A stretch of DNA of 21,147 nt, from assembly GCA_034667725.1 (NCBI GenBank), contig JAXDQS010000009.1, forward strand, positions 1 to 21,147. Direction: 5' to 3'. The notes below the pieces were generated by a model. That model ran no database searches and was not told the DNA's origin. It saw only the letters and a list, made by a program, of their open reading frames with translations. The stretch is from Thermoplasmata archaeon. GTDB taxonomy: Archaea > Thermoplasmatota > E2 > JACPAO01 > JAHFTW01. The translations under genes and the position numbers were made by a program. This document shows positions 7,550 to 9,999 of the stretch, piece by piece (position 1 is the first letter of the stretch; each line of letters starts with the position of its first letter).

Positions 7550-7774
7550 TCAGGCGCGGCGCCGCTGCATCTCTTGGATGGTCTCGACGATGTCCGTGAG
7601 GTAGGTCAGCGCCTGCTGGGCGTGCTGCGCCTTCTCCCCCAACGAGTCCGCCTCCTGGGCCCACAACAGGAGGATGCGGATGTCCTCGATGTTCTTGTTG
7701 ACCGTGAGCTTGAGGGAGTCCTCGTAGAGCTGGTTGTCGCGGGGCGGGGCGGGGAAGCCCGGCGGCATGGCCAT
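7550..7774 (-). CDS. Small hypothetical helical protein
   Basis: MAMPPGFPAPPRDNQLYEDSLKLTVNKNIEDIRILLLWAQE...; protein-like composition and typical codon bias. Confidence 0.7.
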   Translation of the reverse strand: MAMPPGFPAPPRDNQLYEDSLKLTVNKNIEDIRILLLWAQEADSLGEKAQHAQQALTYLTDIVETIQEMQRRRA

Positions 7775-7818: not shown

Positions 7819-8082
7819 TCAACCTGAGGGCGCAGCCGCCGGCGGCCCGTAGGTCCCGCCCGTGCCGGACGTCGCGCCGCCCGTCGACGACGGCTGCGAC
7901 GACGAGCCGGAGCCCGTGCCGGTCGGCCCGCCCCCGCCGTCGTAGCCCCCGCCGCCGTCGCCGCCCCGCCCGTAGACGAAGAACAACGCCAGCAGCACCA
8001 GCGCCACCACCACGACAGCCAGCACGACCCACATCATGTTGCCGCCGCCCGCCGGCTCCCCGCGATCCTCCTCGATGGCCAT
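7819..8082 (-). CDS. Small single-pass membrane protein with Gly/Ser/Thr-rich tail
   Basis: MAIEEDRGEPAGGGNMMWVVLAVVVVALVLLALFFVYG followed by a low-complexity G/S/T tail. Confidence 0.7.
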   Translation of the reverse strand: MAIEEDRGEPAGGGNMMWVVLAVVVVALVLLALFFVYGRGGDGGGGYDGGGGPTGTGSGSSSQPSSTGGATSGTGGTYGPPAAAPSG

Positions 8083-8176
8083 GGGTCGGCAACGCCGCGC
8101 GCCACGTAAGCAGGAGCGATGGCGGCAGCCGCGCGGGAGGAGCCCTTTTTCCGCAAAGGGGCGTCCCGCCGGACAA

Positions 8177-8250
8177 GGACCCATGGGCTAGCTAGGATAG
8201 ACTTCCGGCCTTCGAAGCCGGAGACGAGGGTTCGAATCCCTCTGGGTCCG
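8177..8250 (+). tRNA. tRNA-Arg (anticodon TCG)
   Basis: Acceptor stem GGACCCA/TGGGTCC, anticodon arm CCGGC-CTTCGAA-GCCGG, T arm GAGGG-TTCGAAT-CCCTC. Confidence 0.95.
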
Positions 8251-8321
8251 CTGCCATTTCGCCCGGTCGCCTGGCGCAGGCGGTCTCATCCGCGACACGC
8301 TTAACATCCCCCTCTTGCCCT

Positions 8322-8410
8322 GGGGTTCCTACTCCGGGAGCGGGCCCGCAGGCTCCGCACTTCGCCTCAAGGCGGAGCTTCTCGGAGCAAAAGGAGGCCA
8401 GGAGAACCCC
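8322..8410 (+). promoter_or_regulatory. Structured 5' leader predicted to sequester SD-like sequences of the small ORF
   Basis: Helices 8322-8328/8404-8410, 8332-8339/8380-8387 and 8351-8358/8372-8379. It begins about 22 nt after TATA-like CTTAACAT (8300-8307). Confidence 0.5.
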
Positions 8411-8417
8411 CCAAAAA

Positions 8418-8540
8418 ATGAGCAGACAGACCCACGCAAGAATGCTAGTCGCGCAGATCGTCCTGGTCCCCCTGTGGTGGGCCGTTTGGAGCCTGCTCGA
8501 CTACGCCCAGGGAACAGTAGTGAAAGTGGTCTGCGGGTAG
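8418..8540 (+). CDS. 40-aa hydrophobic peptide, candidate type I toxin
   Basis: MSRQTHARMLVAQIVLVPLWWAVWSLLDYAQGTVVKVVCG*, preceded by AAGGAGG (8391-8397) and GGAGA (8401-8405). One TM-length hydrophobic segment. Below the ORF-track size cutoff. Confidence 0.55.
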   Translation: MSRQTHARMLVAQIVLVPLWWAVWSLLDYAQGTVVKVVCG

Positions 8541-8595
8541 GCAGGCCGCGAAACCCGTGCGCAGGACCCAAGGGTCCTTGCGGGTGAGCACCCCA

Positions 8596-8641
8596 CCGGG
8601 GACCGGGTCTTGGCGCCAAGCAACCGGTCCCCGGGGTTTTT
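8596..8641 (+). terminator. Strong hairpin plus T-tract terminator
   Basis: 11-bp stem CCGGGGACCGG/CCGGTCCCCGG around the palindrome CTTGGCGCCAAG, followed by GGTTTTT. Confidence 0.7.
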
Positions 8642-8661
8642 AACAGGTGCGCACGCGGTTG

Positions 8662-8692
8662 GGGCCGTTTGGCCCTTTTTGTTTTTCTTTTT
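8662..8692 (+). terminator. Second hairpin plus long T-tract terminator
   Basis: GGGCC-GTTT-GGCCC followed by TTTTTGTTTTTCTTTTT. Confidence 0.65.
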
Positions 8693-8785
8693 CGCCAAGA
8701 CAGTTGCCTGCGAGAGCCAAGGCTCGGCCAAAAAAGCGCAGAAGGAAAAGGAAAGAGAAGGAAAGGAGGAGGGGCTCGCGTCGCC

Positions 8786-9937
8786 TTACGCCGTGACCAC
8801 GGTGGCGTCCACCGTGACGTCGTTCTGGAACGCCAGCAGGTGCAGCATGTGCGCCGCGACCTCGGTGGCCGACTGGAAGCCCTTCACGAGGTTGGCCTCG
8901 CCGCCGGCCATCGCCGTCATGGTCTCGACGGTGTCCTCGAGGTGCCAGAAGGGGTACACGCCGGCCGGGGCGGGGGTGTGCACGTCCTGGGGCGAGTCGC
9001 CGGGGGCGGCGACCTCCTCGAAGGCGCTGATGAAGAACACGGTGGGGATGGGGCCGCCCTCGTCCTTGCCGACCTCCCAGAAGCGGGCGTAGTCGCTGGA
9101 GCCGAGCTGGAGGCCGTCCTTGCGCACGACCTGGCCGTCGGGGAAGCCGAGGGCGCCGGTCTTGTTCTGGACTTCCTTCCACAGCAGTTCCGAGTTGGTC
9201 ATGACGTTGATCGGGTTCCAGGTGCCGGGCCAGTTGATGCCGATCATGTCGAGGTCGACGTCGCCGACGATGTCGACGTGGCCGTAGGGCGTCGCGAAGG
9301 TGCCGTCGTCGTGCTCGGCCTCGGTCATGAAGTCGCGCACGAAGGCCGCGGCGCCCTGGGTGCCCAGCTCCTCGCCGTCGAACAGGACGTAGGCGATGGT
9401 GTAGTAGGGCGTGGCGTTGGCGAACTGGCGGGCCAGGTGGACCGTCATCATGGTGCCGGAGCCGTCGTCGTAGGCGCCCTGGCTGAGGGCGCGGAGGGCG
9501 CAGGGGTTCTCGGCCGGGGGCAGCGGGTCGGGGGTGCCGCCCACAAGGCAGTCGTCGGTGACGGTGTCGTAGTGCCCGCCGACGACGACCCACTGGTCGC
9601 GCTGGACGCCCCACTGGATGCCGACGATGTTGGCCTGGTTGGCCAGGGCGCCGGTGGTGAAGTTGTGGCGGTAGCTCTCGAGGCCGAAGCTGTCGAAGGC
9701 GGCCAGCAGGTCCTTGCGGGCCGACTCGTGGGTGGGCAGGTTGTCGGCGCGCTCGCCGTTGGCGGTCACGAACTTGGCGTGGTCGGCCAGGAGCTGGACG
9801 GCGTCCACGGCGGGGACGGCGGGAACGTGGTAGGCGTTGTCCACGGGGTCGGCGGGCGGGGTGGGCTCGTCGGCGGGCTGCGTGCAGCCGGCCAGCACGG
9901 CCATCGCAGCAAGGGCGAGGCCAAGGAAAGCGCGCAT
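8786..9937 (-). CDS. M28 family zinc metallopeptidase, lipoprotein
   Basis: Lipobox LAGC; motifs GGHYD, GAYDDGSG, DGEELG, DLDMIG, SSDY and WHLEDT. ATG at 9937 with CTTTAC about 25 nt upstream. Confidence 0.92.
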   Translation of the reverse strand: MRAFLGLALAAMAVLAGCTQPADEPTPPADPVDNAYHVPAVPAVDAVQLLADHAKFVTANGERADNLPTHESARKDLLAAFDSFGLESYRHNFTTGALANQANIVGIQWGVQRDQWVVVGGHYDTVTDDCLVGGTPDPLPPAENPCALRALSQGAYDDGSGTMMTVHLARQFANATPYYTIAYVLFDGEELGTQGAAAFVRDFMTEAEHDDGTFATPYGHVDIVGDVDLDMIGINWPGTWNPINVMTNSELLWKEVQNKTGALGFPDGQVVRKDGLQLGSSDYARFWEVGKDEGGPIPTVFFISAFEEVAAPGDSPQDVHTPAPAGVYPFWHLEDTVETMTAMAGGEANLVKGFQSATEVAAHMLHLLAFQNDVTVDATVVTA

Positions 9938-9999
9938 GGGCGGGGCCGACCCGTCCATTGGTAAAGCGGTTGTGGTGGGCGCCGTTTTCCCTGGCGGCC

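Follow-up and report, generated by a model that had tools for sequence, protein, structure and literature searches.

The locus examined here raises the question of whether a short hydrophobic open reading frame (ORF), set in a folded RNA behind an archaeal tRNA gene, encodes a type I toxin or, as the original prediction also allowed, another tightly regulated membrane peptide. Within the window (the whole 21,147-nt stretch that was analyzed), within-genome statistics support a promoter-to-terminator unit with a short hydrophobic ORF, and this orphan unit is probably real. As to its nature, we tentatively favor, with somewhat less than even confidence, a stand-alone, species-specific, low-expression mRNA for a small single-pass membrane peptide, lodged behind tRNA-Arg(UCG) in a slot of high turnover. 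The type I half of the earlier proposal has no family match, second copy, or homologue behind it, and the membrane-peptide fallback fits better. The promoter score, strand-biased structure, ORF hydrophobicity, and single-copy status were computed for the unit; its transcription, translation, fold-back, antisense RNA, and function we infer.

Genomic setting of the unit

The window covers the opening 21 kb of contig C9 in a 2.3-Mb genome of roughly 70% GC and 90% completeness. Genes for ribosomal protein S3Ae and a DP1-like polymerase subunit lie within it, and the genome contains archaeal SRP and RNase P RNAs (at loci other than the 8331-8690 unit), so the host is an archaeon. The unit occupies the 534-nt gap between tRNA-Arg(UCG) and an M28 peptidase gene that converges on it, with the following boundaries.

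8177 to 8251, + strand: tRNA-Arg(UCG), the upstream neighbor, whose 3' flank is variable across the genus
8729 to 8775, - strand: pyrimidine-rich terminator of the convergent M28 peptidase gene (8786 to 9958), outside the unit

The tRNA ends 49 nt upstream of the TATA element, in line with the spacing of about 50 nt first reported. Its 3' flank is different in every relative examined. In two of these (G004 and G005), the gene order is rps3ae, the tRNA, variable cargo, a gene for a 74-residue protein, and then the convergent M28 gene; this block is rearranged in the present genome, and the unit sits at the junction. Comparison of the unit with the matching syntenic spacers of relatives gave no similarity except in the M28 terminator, and the M28 orthologue in another relative (G011) is also backed by a similar pyrimidine-rich tract. 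An integrated element was considered and rejected, since no duplicated tRNA end was found at the locus.

Several observations on the neighborhood are recorded here in their own right. The 74-residue gene (7550 to 7774, - strand) is kept in all five congeners tested at 62 to 72% identity and belongs to no Pfam family; it is usually convergent with the M28 peptidase gene, from which it has been rearranged away in this genome. Divergent from the tRNA lies a gene for a membrane protein of 87 residues that has one helix and a Gly/Ser-rich tail (7819 to 8082, - strand). A similar-looking small membrane gene occurs just 3' of the same tRNA in G005 (L158:1303-1533), and tblastn gave no link between the two. 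In several relatives (L054, L055, L056, and L061), duplicated tRNA 3' ends alternate with CTCGCTTCGCTCG-like palindromic repeats directly 3' of tRNA-Arg(UCG).

Promoter, predicted transcript, and RNA structure

The sense-strand features of the unit are as follows.

8291 to 8310, + strand: BRE/TATA promoter with TTAA at 8301 to 8304; predicted start at 8329 to 8331, A8331 being the likeliest
8322 to 8328, + strand: GGGGTTC, the proposed anti-SD arm, 5' of the predicted start and probably present only in RNA reading through from the tRNA
8332 to 8387, + strand: Y-shaped (three-way) 5' hairpin domain, beginning at +2 of the predicted RNA
8388 to 8417, + strand: purine-rich linker with GGAGG (at -25), GGAG (at -17), C6, and an A-run; 8388 to 8402 is predicted to pair with 8668 to 8681
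8418 to 8540, + strand: ORF for a 40-residue peptide, with a 19-residue hydrophobic segment (residues 9 to 27) between Arg8 and Asp28
8546 to 8676, + strand: structured 3' untranslated region (UTR) with hairpins at 8560 to 8582, 8596 to 8634, and 8661 to 8676
8637 to 8641, + strand: first T5, a possible early terminator, overlapping the TTAA of the candidate antisense promoter
8676 to 8692, + strand: main terminator-like tract of three T5 runs (U-tract)

The TATA-like CTTAACAT at 8300 to 8307 is present as first described. With a BRE/TATA matrix derived from 472 of the genome's own genes (the gene calls under the promoter, SD, and codon statistics come from a simple model of our own, with imperfect starts), the promoter at 8301 scores 11.0, in the top third of the training set (median, 9.3; upper quartile, 11.3), and in convergent spacers the background of promoters with this score is about 0.1 per kb. 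Measured from the TT, leaderless ATGs of this genome lie most often 28 to 30 nt away, which agrees with the centering of the haloarchaeal TATA box at -27/-28 (PMC2151090). Given this spacing and the TATA element at 8301, the start is therefore placed at 8329 to 8331 rather than near 8322, where it had been put before. Strong promoters that run to a T5 without a called gene between number only eight in the genome, and the one at 8301 is the sole one with a short hydrophobic ORF. Two strong orphan promoters elsewhere (G000:C10:79927 [+] and G000:C2:34038 [-]) lead into about 300 to 330 nt rich in hairpins and then a T5; as both lack a hydrophobic ORF, they are candidates for non-coding RNAs. A bacterial sigma-70 promoter was sought at the locus and rejected, none being found.

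From the corrected start, the predicted RNA (8331 to 8690; about 360 nt) folds at a z score of -3.21, compared with -2.14 for the span originally delimited. Its two structured domains are both strand biased: the 5' domain (8331 to 8392), which begins 1 nt past the independently predicted start, has z scores of -4.04 on the + strand and -1.74 on the - strand, and the 3' domain (8546 to 8676) has z scores of -4.05 and -2.87, respectively. Relative to 70 sampled long spacers, the 3' domain ranks in the top 4% for structure, although 24% of these spacers contain a window at a z score of -3 or lower; the ORF region between the domains is not unusually structured (z = +0.36). The hairpin-rich 3' UTR with two hairpin-plus-T terminators proceeds as foreseen, with the hairpin at 8596 to 8634 followed by a T5 and that at 8661 to 8676 followed by the T-tract to 8692; penta-U termination is known in haloarchaea (PMC2151090). 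One further 3' UTR hairpin (8560 to 8582; 8563 to 8580) resembles the tRNA 5' leader and acceptor strand (8174 to 8187), with 13 of 14 positions complementary, probably by chance through a palindromic core.

The leader had been described as an atypical one of about 95 nt in which an SD element is masked by a helix at the 5' end. The prediction of a leadered mRNA, with a promoter lacking a leaderless ATG, does hold up; the start has moved to 8329 to 8331, and the SD motifs lie too far from the ATG. Both SD-like elements, AAGGAGG at 8391 to 8397 and AGGAGA at 8400 to 8405, are there, but at -25 and -17 they fall outside the band in which GGAG begins in operon-internal genes of this genome (-15 to -9, with a peak at -12; n = 397), SD use being taken from these genes because the assembly is without 16S rRNA. 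Likewise, GGGGTTC (8322 to 8328) and GAACCCC (8404 to 8410) are complementary as claimed, but the helix is mostly untranscribed from this promoter, because the predicted start is downstream of its 5' arm, and it adds no significance (8322 to 8440; z = -1.27). Inclusion of 8322 to 8328 weakens the folding (z = -1.86 for 8322 to 8412 versus -4.04 for 8331 to 8392). An SD-sequestering helix at the 5' end is thus unlikely in RNA made from this promoter.

An Rfam covariance-model search, which covered SRP, RNase P, tmRNA, riboswitches, and type I antitoxins and in which a hit would have told against the original proposal, returned no match for the unit. SRP RNA and RNase P RNA were rejected as identities because both are encoded elsewhere in the genome; tmRNA was also rejected, and a C/D guide RNA was rejected for lack of C or D boxes. 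The unit also showed no similarity to the genome's repeat families, and REP/MITE-like dispersed copies were not found.

The ORF and its peptide

The 40-codon ORF is present as predicted, and its hydrophobicity exceeds chance: in 3,000 dinucleotide shuffles of the RNA, not one ATG-initiated ORF reached a 19-residue hydropathy mean of at least 1.6, against 1.96 for the real ORF. In the peptide, 11 of 15 residues are hydrophobic. The segment, bounded by Arg and Asp and containing Gln and Pro, is moderately hydrophobic, and on a membrane-insertion scale it is plausibly a marginal membrane helix. A single-sequence AlphaFold model likewise gives one helix, which is weak evidence. The C-terminal end has one Lys in its last 10 residues and no charged cluster.

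The codons AGA, CTA, GTA, and AAA, pointed out earlier as atypical, are indeed rare in this genome (relative weights of 0.00 to 0.04). Rare codons occupy both ends of the ORF, and codons 11 to 31 are host-like (best-segment P = 0.008 to 0.03). Taken whole, the ORF has a synonymous codon use that fits the intergenic background (P = 0.36), the host coding model is rejected, and its CAI of 0.27 is below that of 99.6% of gene starts. Directly before the ATG lies an A5, which no called gene has; since an A-run followed by TG is often the reverse side of a T-tract terminator, the ATG could be incidental. A frameshifted second helix was rejected, as the other frames after codon 31 give none.

Searches for homologues

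The proposed checks for multicopy loci and a conserved homologous ORF gave a unit that is single copy in the genome and without a homologue in the genomes and collections searched. For the peptide, none was found in a word-indexed protein search, in an ESM Atlas search (best score, 0.80), or in peptide-pattern scans of viral, metagenome, and genome contigs. A phmmer search of 1.84 billion protein representatives also recovered none; its one match (P0001) was rejected because the score is summed over alignments to internal repeats. Translated searches of 60 relatives, 196 genomes of the class, and 400 of the phylum yielded chance-level matches only, and blastn of relatives, plasmids, and phages gave no match to the unit. 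At the RNA level, hairpin-pattern searches found no match, and single-sequence covariance models, of low sensitivity, recovered nothing for both domains in the genome itself and its family and for the 5' domain alone in the class. These empty searches hold for the sets covered, short queries and single-sequence models being insensitive. Profile searches of Pfam (E values up to 1), NCBIfam, PHROGs, and PADLOC (E values up to 10) likewise gave no match to a toxin model, whether of the Hok, Ldr/Fst, TisB, Ibs, AapA, or TxpA family or another, although short peptides can be missed in this way.

A degenerate scan for WWAVW-x-LLD turned up a phage ORF of 37 residues and, on eukaryote-like contigs, a family of two-helix proteins. 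The WWAVWSLLD family (P0002-P0022, L100, L106, L109, L110, and L119) comprises proteins of 67 to 123 residues with two helices, an invariant WW-x-x-WSL-x-D and P-x-x-E, and no Pfam match beyond a faint Fuseless-like one (PF15993; E = 0.035). The peptide has the identical nine-residue motif, placed about as far from its first Met as in the family, but it is without the P-x-x-E and the second helix, and the profile match ends at residue 28. It scores 25 bits on a family profile built without it, which is not significant at database scale. Because the family was picked by the motif itself, which is circular, we regard the likeness as resemblance and not membership.

Two small ORFs that came up in these scans are noted as separate observations. 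The phage ORF (L114:1353-1463, - strand), on a phage-like metagenome contig, has its own SD, overlaps the next gene, and has no family; it shares the LV-x-x-(I/L)-x-L and WWAVW-x-LLD-x-x-x-G spacing of the peptide and is a lead only. In Burkholderiaceae, a 39-residue hydrophobic ORF (L082:2992-3111, + strand) absent from the protein collection lies between genes for a Fur/Zur-like protein and a metal ABC-transporter-like ATPase; with 11 identical residues, it was rejected as a homologue and treated as convergence, being pattern selected and without a family.

Fold-back helix and candidate antisense RNA

In the full-length RNA with the corrected start, 8388 to 8402, directly beside the 5' domain, is predicted to pair with 8668 to 8681 at a probability of 0.92. 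In the folding model, trimming of the 3' end to 8665 abolishes this fold-back, and the unpaired fraction of 8388 to 8404 rises from 0.14 to 0.68. Compared with composition-matched dinucleotide shuffles, the fold-back is not significant (P = 0.08 to 0.19), and 52% of linker shuffles yield at least 10 such pairs; it is within chance because a purine-rich linker pairs readily with a U-rich tail. The AUG stays unpaired (0.8 to 0.9) throughout, and with the AUG open and the SD motifs misplaced, a fold-back lock may therefore not block initiation. In haloarchaea, leadered mRNAs are translated without an SD (PMC2151090).

On the opposite strand, two candidate features face the unit.

8634 to 8653, - strand: candidate antisense promoter, TTAAAA from 8643, with a predicted start at about 8614
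8413 to 8614, - strand: candidate antisense RNA of about 200 nt that would cover the whole ORF and end at a T6 (8418 to 8413)

The antisense promoter scores 7.7, a weak to middling value with a background of about 1 per kb in convergent spacers, and the candidate RNA is without unusual structure (z = -0.9). Two of the 186 intergenic TTAA sites of the genome face each other across the ORF, and T6 runs number only 87 in the genome; this coincidence of facing sites and a T6 at the antisense end, noticed post hoc, is suggestive. The same T6 also weakens the ATG, because an A-run followed by TG is often the back of a terminator.

Alternative explanations

Unlikely, though the most substantial of the competing accounts, is a decaying cargo or chance mosaic at the rearranged tRNA flank, not selected as a unit, in which a leftover promoter, a small membrane-gene fragment, hairpins of a REP/MITE-like kind, and terminators from two units that converge happen to adjoin. 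The variable tRNA flank and the junction position relative to G004 and G005 point this way, as do the frequency of well-folded windows in long spacers, the host-like codon core with ragged ends, which resembles erosion, and the likeness of the purine-rich "SD" stretch to the back of this genus's terminators. Against it, the promoter, the start of the 5' hairpin, an intact ATG-to-stop ORF, and the U-tract are all aligned on one strand, and neither likeness to repeat families or syntenic spacers nor a second copy or tRNA-end duplication was found.

Improbable is a structured non-coding RNA of about 310 to 360 nt with an incidental internal ORF, for which a strong promoter without a leaderless ATG, the strand bias of both domains, the lack of a well-placed SD, and an overall codon use like that of non-coding DNA can be cited. 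However, the shuffles produced no ORF so hydrophobic, the ORF region is not unusually structured, the Rfam search gave no match, the SRP and RNase P RNAs are encoded elsewhere, and C and D boxes are missing.

A shade more improbable still is a true type I toxin-antitoxin pair, in which the 40-mer would depolarize the membrane, the mRNA would stay locked by the 3'-to-SD fold-back until 3' trimming activated it, and the antisense RNA of 200 nt would neutralize it, with TATA/BRE promoters on both strands. The size and hydrophobicity of the peptide agree with the first two search criteria of Fozo (it has 11 of 15 residues hydrophobic and, with its membrane segment, is below the limit of 70 residues for a type I toxin), the predicted fold-back and its release by trimming parallel aapA (PMC6733600), and the facing TTAA sites and rare T6 are as such a pair would have them. 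The criteria of Fozo 2010 also include charged or polar residues clustered within the C-terminal 10 positions and flanking gaps of >400 and >250 nt; here, the single Lys makes no such cluster (judged without a numeric score), and the gaps are 167 nt (to the tRNA) and 246 nt. Moreover, neither the fold-back nor the antisense promoter exceeds chance, and with an open AUG and misplaced SD motifs, a lock may fail to block initiation. The RNA may act in the manner of a type I toxin mRNA, but we do not file the unit as type I, because the toxin profiles, copy number, C-terminal charge, and flanking distances all speak against it.

Proposed mode of action

If the unit is the species-specific membrane-peptide mRNA that we favor, the promoter at 8301 would direct an RNA that starts near 8331 and ends in the U-tract at 8676 to 8692, probably stabilized by the 5' Y-shaped hairpin and the 3' hairpins. 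Its translation would probably be low, with a leadered mRNA, badly spaced SD-like motifs, rare codons at both ends, and the 3' fold-back on 8388 to 8402, which 3' trimming would free. The antisense RNA, running from 8614 to 8413, may act as a second brake. The peptide would most likely be a membrane or stress modulator resembling sP24 of Methanosarcina mazei, and not a killer.

Comparison with known systems

In hok/Sok, a short hydrophobic ORF lies in a folded mRNA whose 3' end pairs with the SD region until 3' trimming, and the unit is like it in having a folded mRNA, a short hydrophobic ORF, and a predicted 3'-to-SD pairing. The ibs/Sib loci of Escherichia coli encode Ibs peptides of about 19 residues in repeats. 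The likeness to them is that the candidate antisense RNA would span the entire ORF from a convergent promoter; in contrast to the short, repeated Ibs peptides, the peptide here has 40 residues and no model match. The aapA/IsoA loci of Helicobacter pylori occur in multiple copies and are toxic, and an antisense RNA of 80 nt masks their SD region (PMC6733600). They share with the unit a short hydrophobic ORF in a folded mRNA and a 3' end that is predicted to pair with the SD region until it is trimmed, whereas the unit is single copy, has a misplaced SD and a pairing that is not significant, and carries its candidate antisense RNA over the ORF.

A 2025 paper gives type I systems from bacterial phyla only (PMC12390103), and we found no archaeal case in the literature searched. 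If the peptide proved toxic and antisense controlled, type I toxin-antitoxin systems would be extended to archaea, and fold-back control of translation would be shown to operate in an organism in which first genes frequently lack a leader.

Closer in description is the spRNA24/asRNA94 pair of M. mazei, in which a species-restricted, membrane-located, non-toxic peptide, sP24, is accompanied by an antisense RNA; the two RNAs were demonstrated there along with insertion into the membrane, and sP24 is of benefit in salt stress (bioRxiv 10.1101/2025.10.28.685009). The unit resembles it as an archaeal small RNA for a single-helix membrane peptide of narrow range, opposed by a candidate cis antisense RNA. 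The likeness is one of description, and the RNAs and insertion demonstrated there are all predicted here, the antisense RNA being uncertain. As a regulated orphan membrane peptide, the unit would be of modest importance, adding another unannotated small gene to a kind for which Methanosarcina already provides an example.
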